From Octopus vulgaris (Eukaryota), in the NCBI GenBank assembly GCA_951406725.2, contig OX597814.1, positions 103,044,001 to 103,108,000 of the forward strand: a DNA stretch of 64,000 nt, in the 5' to 3' direction. Positions within the stretch are counted from its first letter, which is position 1. Every line of letters begins with the position of its first letter. The translations under genes and the position numbers were made by a program. Positions 40,284 through 60,230 of this stretch are shown here, piece after piece. The notes under the pieces are model-generated. The model had not been told where the DNA came from. It saw nothing but the letters and a program-made list of their open reading frames with translations, and did no database searches.

Positions 40284-40567
40284 ATGCCAAACATTGTCCA
40301 AGTTCAAAAAACCGAAGTCTTGAAATGCAAGCTTCGTCATGCATTTCTTGCCGTACAACATTGTGCATCTGTGTGGCAGGAATGTGCTCGTCAGCAAGAA
40401 GTGCAACTTAAGGAACTTTTTAACCTATGTGAACAATACCAGTGTTGTTATGAAGCAAATGTGGAATCTTTAGAGCTCCCTGCTAGTCTGAATGAAGTAA
40501 AATCCAAGTTACTTTATGTTATTGTGGAGAAGATAGAACAAAAACTGTGTGCAGTTCAAGCCACAAT
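40284..40567 (+). CDS. C1orf109: C1orf109 coding exon 1
   Basis: Acceptor TTTTCTTTTGCAG at 40272, ATG at 40284, donor AT|GTAAGT, phase 2. Confidence 0.9.
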
Positions 40568-43500
40568 GTAAGTGTTGTGAGTTAATTACTAAGACCACAG
40601 GGGTTCAGTTTCTCATTTGACTCTAATACAAGATTTGTACATGGATGGCCATCATTTCCTCACTCTCCTACCTTTGGAAGTATTCTTTCCTTTTCCATCT
40701 TCTGCTACAATTTCCATTTGAAATGCAAATCAAATGGAAATTGTAGTTAAGATACCTGTGCTGGTGACACATTAAAAGCACCATCCGAACGTGGCAGATG
40801 CCAGCTCCGCCTGACTGATGTCCAAGTCGGTGACATGTAAAAGCACCAACCGACATGGCCGTTTGCCAGCCTCATCTGGCCCCTGTGCTGGTGGCACATA
40901 AAAAGCACCCACTACACTCACAGAGTGGTTGGTGTTAGGAAGGGCATCCAGCTGTAGAAACACTGCTAGATCAGACTGGAGCCTGGTGCAGCCTCTTGGC
41001 TTCCCAGACCCCGGTCGAACCGTCCAACCCATGCTAGCATGGAAAACGGACGTTAAACGATGATGATGATGTGTGTAGATAAGATGCATGTATAAATATG
41101 TGTGCGTGTATAATTATCATTATCAATTAACGTCTGTTATCCATGCTGGCATGGGTTGAACAGTTCAACAGCAGATGGTGAGACAGAGGATTGCACAATG
41201 CTCAAATGTCTGCTTTGGCTTGGTTTCTGCAGCTGGATGTCCTTCAGAATGCCAGTCATTTTACAGAATGTACTGGTTACGTTTTATGTACAGCCAGCAC
41301 TAGTGAGGTTAACCAAGTAACTCACGAGACCCTTCAGCTGAGGGTGGGGGAAGTAGTATTGAGATAGGTTGACAGATGTCACATGATGACAGGTTAAAGC
41401 CCCAGGCACAGGTTTCTTGCTGCTGGGGAGACATGTGGTTATAGTGAAGATGTGTCAGAGCATCAAATTACAGGAATGTTAAATTACCTTGAACAAACAG
41501 ACAACACGAAGTCGAGATACTCTTCCTGTGTAGAAAGTAATTTATTTAATGTTGGTGCTGAGACAAACTGTACTCGGTAGTAAACTGTGTAAGGTGGTTG
41601 GTAAACAAATAGGCACAGTTTAGAATAGAGACAATCCTTTAGTTTTGTTGAGGACAAGACAATCTCTCAAGTGTTGATACCATGGTAAAACATACCCAGT
41701 TGTACAGTGTTTAGTGTTAAAAAGAACATCCAGCCATACAAACCCTGTGAAGAAAAGAATGTATAAGGAAAATGTGGTTCCTGACTCATCTAGAAAGGTG
41801 GTGACTCAAATAGCAGCTGACTCAGATTATGAGGACCTATCTAACCCATGACAACCTAGAAAGTGGGCGAAAATAATGATGATGATGATGATGATGATAG
41901 AGGTGGACGTATGGAATTGGACAGTGTGAGTGAAATCTGTATGTCATGTTATGCCATTAGTTCTGATCTTGAAAAGATAATGTTTATCTTTTGGGTTTGT
42001 ACATATTTTTTTTATTAATGTTTGTATCTGAATTGGCAGACATCGATATGATAAACTTATTAACTGCATTCTATTTTATTGAAGTAATGTCTCTGTCTTT
42101 TCATTTTTAGATGTGAATTTCAAAAATCTTATGACAAAGTGAATCAAGCAAGAATCAATGCTTTTGAACAAAAACCCGACATGGTTTACTTGACTGAGAG
42201 TAGAGCCATGTCCCCAACTCTGGCTACCATGTTGGAATGGTTAGATGATACAGAAAGACAGGTTTTTGTACAATATCCTTTGTTGATTTCATTCTTTACA
42301 TTATTGATCACTTCATTTTTTTTTTAAGGAATAAATCAGCTGAATATTAATTGAATATTAGTGTCTCGGAGTGGTTGGTGTTAGGAAGGGCATCCAGCTG
42401 TAGAAACTCTGCCAGATCAAAATTGGAGCCTGGTGCAGCCATCTGGTTCGCCAGCCCTCAGTCAAAATCATCCAACCCATGCTAGCATGGAAAGCGGACG
42501 TTAAACGATGATGATGATGTCTCCCGCTGTCCACATGGAAAGCCAATTTGATGACTGATTGATTGATAAGTTAGTGAAATATATTCCAGTGGTTCTGAAA
42601 CCTGTAGAACTTTCTCCCAGGCTGGTGAAATTGATGCGTGATGAATAACCTGGCCACCTGTAGGTCAGTGTTTGCAGGAATGAGGAACATATCATTTGCT
42701 TTGATTACTTGCAATAGATTGACCTAAGCTCAAGTGATGAGGTTAAGCTGATACAAACAAGTGTGTGTGTTTCAGTTCTTAGTGCCCTCTTATTTATCTA
42801 GCCCTCCATGCCATAATAGAGGGATGAGTAGTGATACATCCACCCATCTTGGTGAAATTGAGATTCTGGAGGCTATATATATATAATTTCAGGAAACCAG
42901 TCAGTTCACCTGATGACCTATAAATCTGGTGACCATACTAGCCAGATTGACTACATTCTCATTGGAAAGAAAGATTCATGGTTGCTCATAAATGCAGAAA
43001 CTTTCCCAGGTGAAGAATGTATCTCTCAGCGTAGTGGTTTCAGACTATGGGCATGAAGGATTCCAAGAAGCAAGCCAATTTGGAAAAGGACCTGGAAGCT
43101 TAAGGCTCTTCTGAATAGCCAGGGATTTAGAGACTGAATCCTAACTGAAGCATTTATTGAGAAGGAGGTAGAGTTACAGACAGGTAACATAGAGGATAAC
43201 TGGAAGTTCCTACGAGACAACTTATCAAGAGCCACAGACCAAATTTGTGGCTGCTTGCCAAGTCCCAGCCAGACCTGGAGTGACATGGTAGTGGAAGAGT
43301 GTAGTTGGCAGGGCCATTAGAGCAAAGAAGCAGGCCTGGAAGAGTGGCAGTAGCAGGGAACTATATTGGGTAGTGAGAATAGAAGCTAGGAGGCAGGTAT
43401 ACTTAGCTAGGGGTGAAGCAGAAAGGAAGAAGTTTGCCAATGTGTTGTGGTGTGAGGATCAACAGCTTGAAGTGTTTTGATTTGCAAGACAGCGAGTCAG

Positions 43501-44741: not shown

Positions 44742-47700
44742 AGAAGGGGGGGGGGTTGTGTATAAACAAAGTATGTTTATAAATGATTATTTCAGGCAAG
44801 CTAAACTAATGAGTTTATTAATTTGCTTCCTTAACTAATTTTAAGCTACACCTCAAGAAATATTTACTTGATGAAATGAAATATGGTGACGTGTCAATCC
44901 TGCAGCAGCTTCTCAAATCCTGGTTACTTGATGATACTAAAGTCATCAATAAAATCCAAGGTAAAGGATACTATATTGGTAATCTTTCAGTAATTCTTTT
45001 TTTCATCCTCTTACGTTTTCAGCCTGACACCAAGGTCAATATGAGGAAATAATTTACAAACCACTTCTATAAAAATTGTCTGTTTAGGACCAGGTTTTCT
45101 ATTTTAGAAAAATCTACGTGTTTGGAGATTGTGAAAAGACTGCTGGCTTTCGTTTCATTAATACTTATCTGTGGTTGTGGTCGGCAGTGGAAGCTGTGCT
45201 CTTGATCCCCTTCTGTGTATGCATCTATGTTACATTTTCTCTTACTGTCACTGCTTCTCCTTCTTTGGTTATAGAAGTGTGATTGTTGGCATTGATGAAG
45301 GTCTGATGCACTCAGCTCTTTGCTGTTCCAAAGGTCAGGAAGCCTTCAGCTGGTCTGGTTTGTCATATATGTTAGCACTGTGGTTTTCTCCCTTCTACTA
45401 CCATTCATTCTGCTTACACTCTTCAAACTGAAAGTGATCCGGGATGCTAGATAAATTCTCAGATGCCACCAACATCTGGAACTTCAGAGACAAATCCATT
45501 CTATTCTTCCACAGATTGAACTTGAGTGCTATAATCTTTGTTCTTCCTCATTGCTGCCACTCCAGCCTGGTCCGTGTTGGGATTCATCTTTTGGTCACTC
45601 ATCTTTCCAAGTGAAATAAGATCCCGGTAAAATCTTGGGTTGCATTGGTGGCCATAGCCAGAATCTTAGTGTCCACCTTATTGTTAAGGGACAATCGTCC
45701 TAAGTTGTTTACTTCTTGTTATAAATCCAATGCAGGACCACGCTTTCCACAGGCATTTTATGACTTGTACTGGACTGGGACACTGTAGCTTTCTTTCTTT
45801 TCTGTTTGAGGCAATGACAAATTCATAGTCATGGCCGATGCCAGTGTCGCGTAACTGGCACCCGTGGCAGTGGCATGTAAAAGGCACCCATTACACTCTT
45901 GGAGTGGTTGGTGTTAAGAAGGGCATCCAGTCATAGAAATCATTCCAAATCAGACTGAAACCTGGTGCAGCTCTCCAGCTTACCAGTTCCAGTCAAACCA
46001 TGTAACCCATGCCAGCATGGAAAGCGGATGTTAAATGAAGATGATTATGATGCATTAGTTTTTTTTGTTTTGGGATGAGCTATGTACTTCAGCAACAGGA
46101 AATTTCATGAATCTCAAGCATGTGATATCAGATTTATCACTATCATCATCATCATCATGGCAGTATAAAGGTACATTGATTGGATCAGGTCTGTTCACCC
46201 AACTGTGGAATGTGCGACGATTCGGAAGAGACCACAGCTCACATTGTATTGGAATGTCCACAGTAAGCTCAGAATAAATACAAACAGTGTTGGTATAAGA
46301 TTGCAATAATACATTGGAATTTTTACAGGAAATTTAGTTTTGCATGCAGATAAAAAAAGTTATAACCATTTTGTGGGACTAGAGATGCAAACCCTCGAAA
46401 ATCCAAGACATCATAAGAATATGTAAAGGTTCTTAATACAGTTGATATTCTATGGGTTCGTGTTGTGTGTGAATGTATATGTATGGACCAGTTACGAGTC
46501 TATCATTTCAATATAAACCATTCATGAACATTTGGAATCTATTGTTGTGAAGGTTGTATAGTCTGAGCCTGTTTGTGACTTCTACTGAATCATTTGTTCC
46601 CCACCACTGGAGTAATAACATTTTTATGAGCCGTAAAGGGATGTCACAACTAACCACACGTATAGAATTATCTGTATATCACTGTCATCCATATGGGTAA
46701 TCATTCTAGCATAAACTAATGGCTACCTGTAATAGGGGAAATATGATTGAGCTGTAACCACATCCAACTGAATAACGAAACTCATTTGAATTTGGTTTCT
46801 GCGGTTGAACCACTCAATTACCTCCCTTGTATTAATTCAGAGGCCAAGTTGCATTTGGTGTTGAATTAGGGGAACTACTGTAATCTTTTTGCCTATCTTA
46901 CCTATATCTAATATTGATGGGTTGATTAATTTAATAGTGAGCTATCTGCTAAAGTCTAGTGTATGCTCTTTCACTTTATTGGTACAGGTTTTCCATTCTT
47001 TCTGAGTGGATTATCAAATCCAGGGAATTATGGACACTTAATCTGTAGTGTGGAACTTGTTTCTATTTCTTTTAAACAAACTTCTTTTACAGCGTGGAAG
47101 GTGTTTATAAGCGTTTTAAGAAACACACAAAAACCATTAGATTCACTTCAACATTTAAATTTAATTTGTCAAAATATTTTCGTCGCTTTGAGACTGCGAC
47201 CTGTTCACTGACAAAATTCCATGCTGCATTTTAAATGGCTTATAAACACCTTCCATTCTGCAATTGTTTTTGTTCCAGCATACGATCTCAGATCAGGTCA
47301 CTTGCTATGCAAGTACATCTCCGCAAACTTCTTTTAATCATGGATAATCATTCAACTATGGTAGTAGTTGAATAATATTCTTAAGGTTGCAATTTACTCA
47401 CATGCAGCATCTTTCAGAGCTTGTCGCTAATTCAGTTCTGAACCAAATTGAAAACTCTTAACACTTTTGAAGAGGACTGGTCCCTAGCTACATTTTGGCA
47501 TTAAAAAATTGAGATTTGATCCAGTAGAAAAAAGTTTACATCAAAATTTGTAGCGACGTTTTTGGAGAGTAAGTAATGCAACCAATCAAGTTTAGATCTA
47601 AATAACTTTTTTTTATAATAAAGATTGTTTGCCAATATAACATGGCAGTCCTGGTTTAGGACTAATGTTGCTGTAATTTAGCCCCAGGGGACACCATCTA

Positions 47701-49375
47701 CAGCTGGCTATACAACACAATCTGTGTCCTTATATTTTCGAACAGATCGTGTTGTATAGTCAACTGTAGATGATGTCTCCTGGGGCTAAATTACAGCAAC
47801 ATTCGTCCTAAACCAGGACTGCCATGTAATGTTGGCAAACAATCTTTACTACAAGGTACTGTTGCTGAATATCTCACGTTATGAGATTTAGAAATAGTAA
47901 TTTTCGAACTTTTTTTAACTTTAAAAGCAAAATATATTTATCTTAGCTTCAATGATAGAAGAAAGCATGAAGAATTTCATAGTTTTGTTCCTATGCATCA
48001 AAAATGTGTATCAAAAAAGTTGTGAGGTAAAATATCATGAAGAAAAATTGAAGTACTTTGATTAAGCTTAAATGAAAGAGCTCAATTTGAGGAATTTCAT
48101 GGTATCAATCTCTTGCAATGAAGTTTTAAAAGAAAAATTATGAGTGCTTGTTTCTCAAATTTGAGGGTGATAATATAATTGTATACTTTTTTATGAATAT
48201 AGTTAAGGGGGCTTTTAATATGTGAGCGACATCATTGAGGTAAGGAAAAAAATTATCAATGACACCACTAATTGACACAATATTAGTAAGCATTACAGCA
48301 TATCCTGGAAAAGACATGGATTACATGGAAAAATGCAAGCAAGAGAAATAATATTCTTATGATTGTAAACCTGGAAAATAACAGGACAAGTTATTACATT
48401 TGGAAAAGTTCAGAACAACTTATTAAATCTGGTAAAATATAGAACAAGAAAATTTTTACTTAAAATATTGCAGCTAAGAATAAAATTTGAATATTAAAAA
48501 TCATTTGATTTTAATTTACAAAGTAACATTGTGGCACGTAAAAAGCACCATCCATCCGTGGCCATTTGCCAGCCCCGTCTGGCACCTGTGCCGGTGGTAC
48601 GTAAAAAGCACCCACTACACTCACGGAGTGGTTGGTGTTAGGAAGGGCATCCAGCTGTAGAAACATTGCCAGATCAGACTGGGCCTGGTGCAGCCTTCTG
48701 GCTTCCCAGACCCCAGTTGAACCGTCCAACCCATGCTAGCATGGAAAGCGGAATACTTTAAAAATGAGAGCCAGAAGTCCCAATATAGCTAAAGTTTTAT
48801 GACAAGTAGAATAGTATATATGGTACGCAAATTCATTATGTAAAAAATAGGCATTGGGTCAAGACAGAAAATGTGGAGACTTGGCAGTAATAACTAATTT
48901 TTGTATTCATCATCATCATCATCATCATCATTTAACAATAGTCTTTTGTCAGAAACTTCCTAATTAGCATTTATTGTGAAAAACTGATTTTGATTGTTTG
49001 GTCTCAACTCAAATGATCAAGAATGTACCGAGATTGGATTATTTAAAGATCTTTCTTTTTCAGTATTTATGATGGGTTTTATGACAAATATTCTTTTGTA
49101 CCATCATGATTTGTTGTTACCTGTTTAACAAATATTAGAATATCCTGATTGCATCTTTTTCACGAATGTCAGTTTGTCCCAAAACATAAAAGCAAGACAT
49201 TTGTCAGCAAACAAACCCTTACTCACTGTTCTTTCTTTCACATTGAGTTTTTATGCTTTTTAATGGAAACATTTAATGTTTTCATCAGTGTTGAAGTTTC
49301 TGTAAATTTTATTGTTTGTTTCTTTGTTTTCCAGAAAGACTTCTTTATTTGGAGGATTTCATGAACGAACCTTAA
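40284..49375 (+). CDS. C1orf109: C1orf109 / AIRIM orthologue (AFG2/SPATA5 complex, pre-60S maturation), 4 coding exons, 603 nt, 200 aa
   Basis: Exons 40284-40567, 42111-42272, 44845-44960, 49335-49375. LRHAFLAVQHCASVWQ, LFNLCEQ, SPTLATMLEWLDDTERQVFVQLHLKKYLL and IQERLLYLEDFMNEP* are colinear with recalled human C1orf109 (LKKCFPVVEEQQGLWQ, LSNLAEQ, SPSVADMLEWLQDIERHYRKSYLKRKYLL, VQDILLNVSFFLEE). AATAAA at 49658. Confidence 0.9.
42111..42272 (+). CDS. C1orf109: C1orf109 coding exon 2
   Basis: Acceptor TTCATTTTTAG. Ends at U12 donor CA|ATATCCTTT; alternative end at 42261 using weak CAG|GTTTTT. Confidence 0.88.
42850..44090 (+). mobile_element. RTE LINE fragment inside the U12 intron
   Basis: GDHTSQIDYIL, WKCHYERLL, VVPNDW, NYRGIKLLDQVIK, STTDAIFLVRQLQEKYL. 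Confidence 0.9.
44401..44519. repeat. Perfect 52-bp inverted repeat with 15-nt loop
   Basis: 44401-44452 is the exact reverse complement of 44468-44519; flanked by (TA)n tracts. Confidence 0.95.
44845..44960 (+). CDS. C1orf109: C1orf109 coding exon 3 (LHLKKYLLDEMKYGDVSILQQLLKSW...)
   Basis: Preceded by U12 branch point TTCCTTAAC at 44827-44835; donor AAG|GTAAAG, phase 1. Starts at 44846 if the GT-AG alternative is used. Confidence 0.88.
47090..47323. mobile_element. Small non-autonomous Penelope/retrozyme-like insertion with hammerhead motif and 13-bp TSD
   Basis: TSD CAAACTTCTTTTA at 47077-47089 and 47324-47336; about 30-bp internal inverted repeat; hammerhead fold at 47165-47215 on the minus strand. 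Confidence 0.7.
47165..47215 (-). ncRNA. Type I minimal hammerhead ribozyme candidate (G3:C8 core variant)
   Basis: UUUGUCA-GUGAACA-G-GUCGC-AGUCUCAAA-GCGAC-GAA-AAUAUU-U-UGACAAA: 7-bp stem I, 5-bp stem II, palindromic stem III. Confidence 0.6.
47619..47848. repeat. 107-bp imperfect inverted repeat with 16-nt loop
   Basis: 47619-47725 versus 47742-47848; 8 mismatches by manual alignment, no indels. Confidence 0.92.
49335..49375 (+). CDS. C1orf109: C1orf109 terminal coding exon (ERLLYLEDFMNEP*)
   Basis: Strong acceptor TTTGTTTTCCAG, phase 1, TAA at 49373-49375. Confidence 0.85.
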
Positions 49376-57640: not shown

Positions 57641-57984
57641 CGAAACCTGATTTTAAATTGTTTACTTCTGTGAAACTAGTTTGATCTCTTAACTGTTTTA
57701 CTTTTGTAAACTCGAGCATATACTTATGTTCATCGGTTGTGTATACGTGGGTAGGTGTCTTCTGCTATAGCCTCGGTCCGACCAAAAACTTTGTGATTGT
57801 ATTTTGGTTTTGGGAATTATATATAATTTAATAAACAATATGTATTTTTATGCGCTGCTATTAGTTTCACGCGATGAAAGCATGGCAGACAGTATTTTTT
57901 AACATGTATGGTGTCCACCAGAAAGTAATCGCAGCACATAAAAACATATATTGTGTTTATTAAATAACATTTATCTCTCGCCAG

Positions 57985-60230
57985 ATGGAGGACTTTTTTG
58001 TGGATCTTACCATCACGGAACGCTACACTATATATATATATATATATATACGTACACATACACAAAAAGCCGACAAAATTAAGAAAGAACTGCATCACTA
58101 CTTTAAAAACCTGCACTTCTCTATCACAGTAGAAACACAACTACAGCCAGTAAACTTCGTAGATGTTACCTTCGACCTGGAACCCAGTATCAATAAGCCC
58201 AAGGAGAAATATAACGAAAAACATTCAGTTGATACATAAAACAATCTAACTACGCCAAAAGCATTATCAAAAGCCTAGTAAAGAACATTTCACTCAGATT
58301 TTCCTCTCTATCTTCAAATGAAAAGCATACTAAACGAAATAGCAACTCCGTATAAAGAAACTCTCAATAACAGCAGTTACAAGGGAAAAGTGCAACATAT
58401 AAACAACAAACCTCCTACAAGTAATGAAATACGTGAGCATAGCAAAGAGGAAAAAATCATCTGGTTTAATCCCTCTCTTTAACATATACGTATTTACATC
58501 AATAGCTAAATTATTTTTCAAAATACTGCAAAACACTTCCACCACAACCACAAAAACTTCAAACTAATAAACAAACACAATGTTAAATTCTCATACTCCA
58601 CTGCCTACAACTTTGAAAAGCCTGTAGTCAATTACAATCACCAAACATTGTCTAAAAGTGAAAACGTGAACCATTCACATAATAACAATTGTAATTATAG
58701 AACACATTCATTCTGCCCTCTTGAAGGAAACTGTCTTTCAAAAAATATTACGTACAGCGCAACGGTAACCGCGAGCACAGCACAAACAACTATATCTACT
58801 TATGTATAGAATAGACAGCAAACCAGTTCAAGACATGCTACAATCAACATACACACACATTACGCAACCCAAACAAGTAAAATTATACGCCACTATCCTA
58901 ACATAAAATTTAAAAAAATACTCTGTTTAGCATAAACTGGAAAATATCACACGCACAACCATACAAAGGTAACGACGAACCTACCAACTTTATACTACAT
59001 TCTCACATTGAAGAATCTTCCCACATTCTCACATTGAAGAACCAAGTTCTGAACCAAAATTCTGAACTAATCTCTTCATGCAAGCACAAACTCATAAAAA
59101 CGTTAAAACATTTCACACTAATATTTTTTTGACGGATAAACATGTAAATATTTACCAGTTCCCCTCCCTCTACTTACACCGTGAACTACCCCCATAATAT
59201 ACATAAAAAACACTTTTACGGCTTTACACTAAACAGCTACTATGGAAATCATCTAAAAGTTTCCCCTATCTCCAACCGAAATCTTCACAAAAGATATAAT
59301 AATATAAGTCCACAAACCTACATAAGCACTCAAAAAAATAAATGCTTGCATGCAAGCAAGTTAGAATAACCATTTCTTTTTTAATTTTAAATTTCAAATT
59401 TTGAAATAAATTTTTTTAAAATTAAATTTTATTTTTATTTCATTTTTTATACATGAGTATATATACACCTTTTATAAATCCCCACTTTCGCATATATCCA
59501 GAGGCTTAAAATAATATATTATAAAATACTCACGTTTGAAACAGAATTGAAACACTTGGCGCACATATTCTACCCCCATAGCACAGGTTAAAATTTCTTC
59601 ATATGAACCAAATTGCTTATGGAGCAATAAATCCCTAAAGGCCAACAGCCTTTACACCTGTCCAAATCCTTTTAGAACATCAAAGCACAAAATAAACAAA
59701 TTTCTATATTAACAACATCATCACATACCTGACTAACAAACCCTACCTTCCAAATAAATAAGGGAAATACTCTAAATGACTGCAACAATACTGACTGCTA
59801 ACATTCTGTTACCAAGATTCTATTACCAAACACTTGACTCTCAGTTACTAAGATTTTAAATACTGGGCTAAACTCCGAATTTTTTACCTTTGCATTGTCA
59901 AAGCATAGGGTTAAATCTAACAAAAACCCAAAATAACTAAAACTACTGGAAGATCATAGACATACCTACCAAAAGGAACACATTCTAAATATTCTCACAA
60001 AACTCTAAATACATGAATAAACAATAACATAACCACAAATTTAATCAATAAAAACTTCTTCAAAACACCTCTCCATAACAACCCACCCTAAAACCTAATT
60101 ACCAGCCCACTCAACCCCATACACCCAAGGAAGATTTTAGCCCCACAGAAACTGTAAAGAATCAAAATTAACTTCAATGCATCGCAGTCAGACGATGGCT
60201 TAGGTGGCCGACACTTGGAAGTCACTGTCA
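57985..60230 (+). mobile_element. Penelope-like element: RT C-terminus plus GIY-YIG remnant and 3' region ending in a decayed hammerhead
   Basis: VNFVDVTFDL, HKQSNYAKSIIKSLVKNISLRFSSLSSNE, KIIWFNP, NVKFSYST, NCNYR...CPLEGNCLSKNITYSATVT; hammerhead-like fold at 60184-60228. Confidence 0.82.

Follow-up and report, generated by a model that had tools for sequence, protein, structure and literature searches.

A likely head-to-head pair of Penelope-like 5' ends carrying a predicted G3:C8 hammerhead in an intron of Octopus vulgaris

An inverted, 5'-truncated arm with a one-sided tail is the insertion scar described for Penelope-like elements (PLEs), and the EN+ clades Neptune, Nematis, Hydra, Naiad as well as Chlamys share it together with partial tandems and (TA)n targets (Craig et al., 2021, PMC8557442). 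The minimal type I hammerhead of PLEs lies in the pLTR, with an extra nucleotide that separates position 9 from 10.1, a G10.1-C11.1 pair and a palindromic 15.2-16.2 region. It occurs as many dispersed single copies and as close pairs on opposite strands, and the published description gives C3:G8 or U3:A8 and a stem I of 4-5 bp, natural U3:A8 hammerheads having been reported (PMC3088659; PMC4209133). In Poseidon PAc of the green anole, reverse transcription begins in vitro at two internal sites in the 5' part of the ORF, both DNA strands are nicked and uncut RNA is used (Frangieh et al., 2024, PMC11167929). The non-LTR retrozymes are small hammerhead-bearing units related to pLTRs (PMC7229834; bioRxiv 10.64898/2026.07.22.740005). 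For octopus, repeat annotation lists 31 recently active Penelope-like families in a publication whose main text is silent on ribozymes and whose supplement may list the present family (PMC13282606).

The locus described here lies in a window of 64,000 nt of Octopus vulgaris DNA, the window being the whole stretch that was analysed. The insert at 47077-47336 is likely (probability about 0.75) a head-to-head pair of 5'-end copies of an autonomous Penelope-like retrotransposon; taken singly, it is ordinary intronic PLE debris. As in the PLE minimal type I hammerheads, its predicted hammerhead sits in the pLTR of a PLE and has the extra nucleotide between 9 and 10.1, G10.1-C11.1 and a palindromic stem III, and the family is likewise spread as single copies and close opposite-strand pairs; the core pair, however, is G3:C8 and stem I has 7 bp. 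The likeness to PAc extends to a hammerhead that adjoins the ORF start, two presumed internal RT start sites that define the tail, presumed nicking of both strands in AT-rich DNA and a presumably uncut RNA template, as judged on the octopus side from the genome. The tail is about 60 nt in octopus and 30-40 nt in PAc, the octopus ORF starts about 55 nt behind the cut site whereas that of PAc starts in stem II, G3:C8 is natural in octopus and a rescue mutant in PAc, and the protein lineages differ. Retrozymes are non-coding, non-autonomous and built of head-to-tail hammerhead repeats; the octopus unit, in contrast, is not tandem, holds the ORF start of a coding element, is linked to an autonomous element and has its boundary off the cut site.

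The insert and its repeat family

The host is a C1orf109-like gene on the plus strand with exons at 40284-40568, from 42112, at 44834-44986 and at 49328-49372, and the insert lies in its last intron (Table 1). The Pfam CA109-like match of the protein has an E value of 1.4e-4, below the cut-off, and the host protein carries the Octopus label. The left junction of the insert is present in three public contig runs with three organism labels, and no empty-site joint for the locus is among those listed in four runs, which hold 37 further joints.

Table 1. Features of the insert and its surroundings (window positions)
Feature	Position	Strand	Basis or remark
Last intron of the C1orf109-like gene, approximate bounds	44987..49327	+	tblastn of protein P0001 on the window; Pfam
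TSD, left copy, 13 bp	47077..47089	+	perfect repeat; falls on the short 3' end of the family
TSD, right copy, 13 bp	47324..47336	+	exact repeat of 47077-47089
Short arm	47090..47229	-	nearly complete copy of the element's 5' end
Long arm	47230..47323	+	5'-truncated copy: ORF start and ~60-nt PLE 'tail', ending at the second presumed RT start site
First 29 codons of the PLE ORF	47235..47321	+	still open in the window copy; ATG 47235
Predicted type I hammerhead	47165..47215	-	sequence and fold; conserved and covarying in related families
Stem I	47215-47209 with 47171-47165	-	UUUGUCA/UGACAAA
Core G3-A9	47208-47202	-	GUGAACA
Extra G between core and stem II	47201	-	
Stem II	47200-47196 with 47186-47182	-	GUCGC/GCGAC
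G12-A14	47181-47179	-	GAA
Palindromic stem III	47178-47173	-	AAUAUU
U17, predicted cut after it	47172	-	

The first-pass annotation of this DNA had reported an exact 13-bp TSD, a left part inverted relative to the right and about 30 nt duplicated between the two. All three observations stand: the two 13-mers are identical and lie exactly at the two natural 3' ends of the family, the inverted arms, 33 nt each at 47087-47119 and 47231-47263, show 85% complementarity, and the duplicated 30 nt can now be identified as the start of a PLE ORF. The insertion had also been placed antisense to C1orf109, which holds for the hammerhead arm and fails for the other arm, which is sense. The short arm runs from 2 nt behind the presumed transcription start across the hammerhead to the first presumed RT start site inside the ORF, so that the window copy lacks the first 2 nt of the unit; it also has no cap G. 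The short arm is identical at 130 of 139 positions to a long copy with a nuclease coding region (L395), and the frame of the 29 codons in the long arm is the one that enters the RT-EN protein at three other loci (L426, L427, L431). Two side observations concern the adjoining DNA. A second, unrelated repeat, seen from contig depth and loose ends at 47347-47600, begins about 10 bp past the right TSD. A long imperfect palindrome at 47669-47799, with weak miRNA-model matches and multi-copy by contig depth, is probably a MITE-like repeat.

The sequence belongs to a large family, as had been supposed, and is not single-copy: an 18-mer across the hammerhead core has 6,616 exact genome matches against 0 for the control, and motifs further 3' have 3,529 and 1,635. 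Sixty loci, followed in their order along the genome, show a unit of about 207 nt that reads in the same sense as the hammerhead. Its 5' boundary is single and sharp, about 17 nt ahead of stem I, and its 3' ends fall at two places, near positions 150 and 207, about 60 nt apart. Head-to-head pairs make up 39 of 90 tail-anchored loci, and in 37 of these 39 just one of the arms bears the ~60-nt tail; (TA)n follows the 3' end in 87 of 187 arms. An unrelated PLE of the same genome shows the same insertion scar. Tandem arrays, which had been named as a check on the idea of a mobile ribozyme unit, are nearly lacking; against thousands of copies, only two head-to-tail junctions were matched by pattern genome-wide, both in one array. 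This array (L546:244-1388) has five full units head-to-tail, 91-98% identical and with (TA)n between them, and is possibly a nascent retrozyme-like array.

The coding element and its placement

The source element was located via widely spaced inverted pairs. At two loci (L329, L330), RT and GIY-YIG coding sequence is followed by about 950 nt of microsatellite-rich DNA and then by the unit, and at the tandem junctions of L426, L427, L428 and L431 the unit continues in frame into the ORF, the duplicated 30 nt and the tail being its first ~30 codons. Among 150 scored matches to the nuclease region, about 100 are 95-100% identical, many of them in long open frames. One locus (L379) has 999 open codons (protein P0002), with a GIY-YIG domain at residues 889-979 that scores above the cut-off. 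A single ORF with RT and GIY-YIG is a feature of EN+ PLEs, and the family shares with them the pLTR partial tandem, the inverted arm, the one-sided tail and the AT-rich target. Of the window's older subfamily, 3 of 21 fetched long copies (L395, L411, L421) have EN or RT-EN coding sequence upstream in sense. Every non-CpG variant that reaches at least 8% in short arms also occurs in long arms (201 short and 65 long arms compared). [quoted passage not shown] The mobilisation by Penelope suggested in the first-pass annotation is borne out to the extent that long copies join the unit to RT and GIY-YIG. Its proposal of a separate non-autonomous family is not supported, nor is a retrozyme, the unit being contiguous with this coding sequence, ORF start included, and having no diagnostic variant of short copies only.

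Two other families of the genome were considered as the source and rejected, as neither matches the unit in sequence: the Neptune-type family, which is the most abundant GIY-YIG family and has a U3:A8 hammerhead, and a Hydra-type family with a 717-aa ORF. The former is an abundant young PLE with a U3:A8 minimal hammerhead (L201, L202, L037-L050), and L201 has an upstream ORF of 326 aa. To the latter type belong many young relatives of a decayed PLE with Hydra-like motifs at 57964-58980 of the window.

The Pfam model RVT_1 gave no match to P0002 at E<=0.1, and the identification of the RT comes from its motifs, from weak similarity to the RT of the Neptune type (E 2e-9) and from the Atlas neighbours of a homologue. 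In 120 homologues (P0003-P0122, nearly all unnamed), the nuclease follows the RT in 101 of the 102 that match both. The protein combines this C-terminal nuclease with a fingers insertion of about 70 residues between RT motifs A and B; the A-B span is 130 in P0002, 125-132 in 45/121 proteins with both motifs found and 61 in the Neptune-type ORF of the genome. The motif DKS was found by pattern in 71 of 121 proteins. A CX3CxxC linker at residue 870 of P0002, upstream of GIY-YIG as in Neptune and Naiad (PMC8557442), agrees with the C-terminal GIY-YIG and CX2-5CxxC linker of Neptune, from which the protein departs in having DKS instead of DKG and a fingers insertion (span 130 against 61). Naiad and Chlamys are described with an N-terminal nuclease and CxC; the nuclease here is C-terminal, and P0002 has no CxC motif beyond its first ~70 residues. 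The Hydra description (DKT, a CxCX5C linker, no fingers insertion, a short ORF) does not apply to P0002; the 717-aa family of the genome shows DKT, RWK and CxCX5C. Compared with the EN+ clades, it is thus the joining of DKS and a ~70-residue motif A-B insertion with a C-terminal nuclease that sets the octopus element apart.

In the clade definitions of PMC8557442, as far as its descriptions go, the protein finds no place. It is set apart by these descriptions rather than by a tree of reference proteins, since the only outgroups of the RT tree are three unrelated PLE types of the same genome, with no named references. The same source describes Neptune as paraphyletic and ties a fingers insertion of 20-40 residues to the clades with an N-terminal nuclease, and the literature search found no later paper on PLE clades. 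The family may offer an unnamed PLE lineage.

The predicted hammerhead and its core

The minus strand reads as the type I hammerhead with G3:C8 that had been predicted from the window, and both of its long stems, I and II, are present in the minimum-energy fold. Taken by itself, the 63-nt motif has only modest stability (z -1.93, with 6 of 200 shuffles as good) and an Rfam scan gave no hammerhead match at E<=10, and for these reasons the argument relies on conservation and not on folding energy. Against the canonical CUGANGA/GAA core, the core pair is kept as G3:C8, and 2% of copies have G3/G8; standard descriptors of the CUGANGA type overlook the GUGAACA core. When two copies were co-folded, a stem I/II dimer with exchanged strands formed in place of the stem III dimer, an outcome that is uninformative on the latter. 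Within one insert, the arms cannot dimerise in cis because head-to-head arms are opposite strands.

The expected conservation of G3:C8 among copies was found: GUGAACA is read in 27 of 27 young loci with the hammerhead inside the fetched stretch (30 loci taken). With minor G3/G8 exceptions, the pair is fixed in the young family and kept in the older family, where it is accompanied by a C at position 7, another loop II and stem I ends changed on both sides; the older-family count of G:C in 21 of 22 is biased, most of these copies having been located by the G3/C8 pattern. The palindromic stem III is kept at a changed length, AAUU in the older family and AAUAUU in the window family. An old relative (L141-L170) has stem III AGGACU and U3•G8 in 10 of 15 copies, together with two G/G, one G/A, one U:A and one C:G. 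A young sister element (L545:1135-5780), with a 1,312-codon open frame, 55% identity and 3,486 exact matches, carries the hammerhead-like motif CUGAUGC at both ends, that is C3:G8 with C9, and only U or C at position 17. It has the same two-ended tail geometry, and no sharp 5' boundary was seen in the 30 copies viewed. One further motif has U3:A8. A natural G3:C8 core in a young coding family stands beside a C3:G8/C9 sister family in the same genome. In the literature searched, G3:C8 turns up solely in partly active variants made in the laboratory (PMC11167929; PMC3884650), such as the C3G/G8C double mutant of anole PAc (PMC11167929); the hammerhead table of PMC8557442 has no G3:C8, and the supplements of PMC4209133 and PMC3088659 may list it.

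Covariation, which had been named as a check, is seen for stem I and the 3:8 pair. In an alignment of 32 sequences, hand-picked from 48 candidates and the window copy and leaving out, for example, L145, L147, L166 and L155 (G/A, G/G, G/G and C/C), positions 3 and 8 are paired in 32 of 32, stem I is 91% paired and three of its five pairs are changed on both sides; the stem II counts of this alignment are invalid, its 3' strand being out of register, and stem I and the 3:8 pair were used. Between families, positions 3 and 8 vary in concert (G:C, C:G, U:A, U•G). Variation is free at position 7 and in loop II, and the pairing of stem I is preserved by double changes. A mismatched G3/G8 lineage has nevertheless transposed. 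It accounts for 34 of the first 100 of 434 position-8 variants, the reciprocal change for about 9 of 100 of 284, and 4 of 11 older long copies have it, two of which were checked and have different flanks. Since this lineage transposed and stem I variants exist as minor subfamilies, selection on the core is not strict. The G3/G8 minor lineage (L385, L390, L397, L400, L406, L431) has about 150 copies by extrapolation. In the 717-aa family, the short 3' end is preceded by a motif that resembles a hammerhead and has the core CCGAAGA, with C at position 4 (L233:3660-3730).

Origin of the short copies and the fate of the ribozyme

The 187 arms were collected through 3' motifs; 58 of them extend to position 3 or beyond it towards the 5' end, and only 3 of these 58 run into the long element. 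Window-type copies whose start is intact number 247, and of the first 100 of these, 31 run on in the same way and 69 stop. By hand count, the stopping copies have at the position of the element's C 44 G, 10 A, 9 C and 6 T, an excess of G (p 4e-20 against 15% G; 2e-16 when 6 fold-back cases are removed), and they share no sequence farther upstream; another analysis of the copies gave a similar result. An untemplated 5' G in L1 and SVA has been ascribed to copying of the cap (PMC3287187). From these sequences we infer that the sharp 5' boundary would be the transcription start and the extra G the copied cap.

In the proposed mechanism, the mRNA would start at this boundary within the upstream pLTR and would be capped and mostly uncut. 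The nuclease of the element would nick both strands of AT-rich DNA about 12-13 bp apart, and each nick would prime one arm, with the RT starting at two internal sites just inside the ORF. The cDNAs would run back to the cap across the predicted hammerhead, giving about 150 or about 207 nt, and the arms would be joined at their 5' ends, head-to-head. A SINE-sized product would need no separate master, because the mRNA begins in the upstream pLTR and priming there gives these two lengths. Two putative RNA runs have one contig apiece that crosses from the tail into the ORF, which is weak evidence; the runs consist of assembled contigs, which show no RNA ends. The large genomic record suggests insertions copied from capped, uncut RNA after internal priming, and would lend in vivo support to a mechanism that has until now been demonstrated in vitro, for a single lizard element.

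Short copies far outnumber long ones, as the 3 of 58 above illustrate, and this would also be expected if they formed a separate, non-autonomous SINE-like solo pLTR with its own internal promoter that borrows the PLE enzyme. The D. virilis Penelope promoter does lie within the pLTR (PMC2377424), so that full short copies may be transcribed, and one five-unit head-to-tail array exists. We consider such an element rather unlikely: the short arms have no common variant of their own, the ORF start is retained, every subfamily examined has long copies, and the divergence of the array units and the (TA)n between them are as from local duplication. Full-length short copies of the coding PLE could still keep an internal promoter and act as secondary sources. 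Yet smaller is the chance that the 5' boundary is a splice acceptor and that short copies come from spliced RNA or a lariat-processing intermediate, which we judge very unlikely. The sequence directly before the boundary does resemble a branch point, a pyrimidine tract and an AG acceptor (CAG/TAG), is conserved between subfamilies, and recalls D. virilis, which has an intron ending at its hammerhead (PMC4209133); the copies, however, retain the AG that splicing would remove and have no common upstream exon, and the junction from the best nearby donor-like site has a single genomic match, which is not the element. Transcription from the boundary followed by internal priming remains the preferred origin.

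Whether the ribozyme cuts bears on the same copies. Arms that start at the predicted cut site are 2 of 187, both ambiguous. Genome-wide, about 60 junctions fall at the cut site against 26, 31 and 48 at three neighbouring positions, as hand counts extrapolated from the first 100 rows of four matched patterns; 48 are left without 10 microhomology cases, and the intervals overlap with that of the neighbour at 48. Starts at the cut site thus make up about 1% of copies, are not clearly enriched and represent at most a weak excess. With so few of them, the templates were mostly uncut, although a little cleavage is possible on these counts. An efficient dimeric ribozyme that drives a retrozyme-like cycle of circular RNA would account for this slight excess, for the palindromic stem III kept despite its change of length and for the restriction of position 17 to U or C in the sister family. 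We regard it as highly improbable, slightly more so than splicing, in view of the rarity of arms starting at the cut site, the near absence of head-to-tail repeats and the slow cleavage reported in vitro for PLE hammerheads (PMC4209133); a weak point in the same direction is that no circular joint occurs in the contigs of three putative RNA runs, contigs being unable to show absence. A catalytically dead relic, kept only as part of a promoter or protein-binding site, is a doubtful but serious possibility, and since it concerns the ribozyme only, it is compatible with the main explanation of the insert. The transposition of G3/G8 and stem-broken variants, the U3•G8 and C9 of sister families and the missing Rfam match speak for it; the joint changes at 3:8, the free variation of position 7 and loop II and the double changes in stem I form instead the pattern of a maintained hammerhead fold. 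On our preferred account, the hammerhead would be slow and dependent on protein or dimer, and may be kept for a step other than the making of insertion templates, for example the processing of tandem read-through RNA. The family provides ready substrates for asking whether cleavage needs a dimer or a protein.

More broadly, and only tentatively, the element may represent an undescribed, widespread PLE lineage with at least 120 relatives in public assemblies. In this lineage the hammerhead core might have been re-wired repeatedly in nature (G3:C8, U3•G8, C9) and might remain uncut at the mRNA's capped 5' end, immediately ahead of the start codon, serving as a switch gated by protein and not as the means of template release, and the thousands of cap-ended copies might be a genomic record of internal RT initiation.

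At one of the tandem loci (L427:1194-1356), positions 1201, 1292 and 1355 show A-to-G differences at a relatively higher frequency in putative RNA contigs than the DNA run does, in an uncontrolled comparison; A-to-I editing of fold-back copies would give such a pattern.
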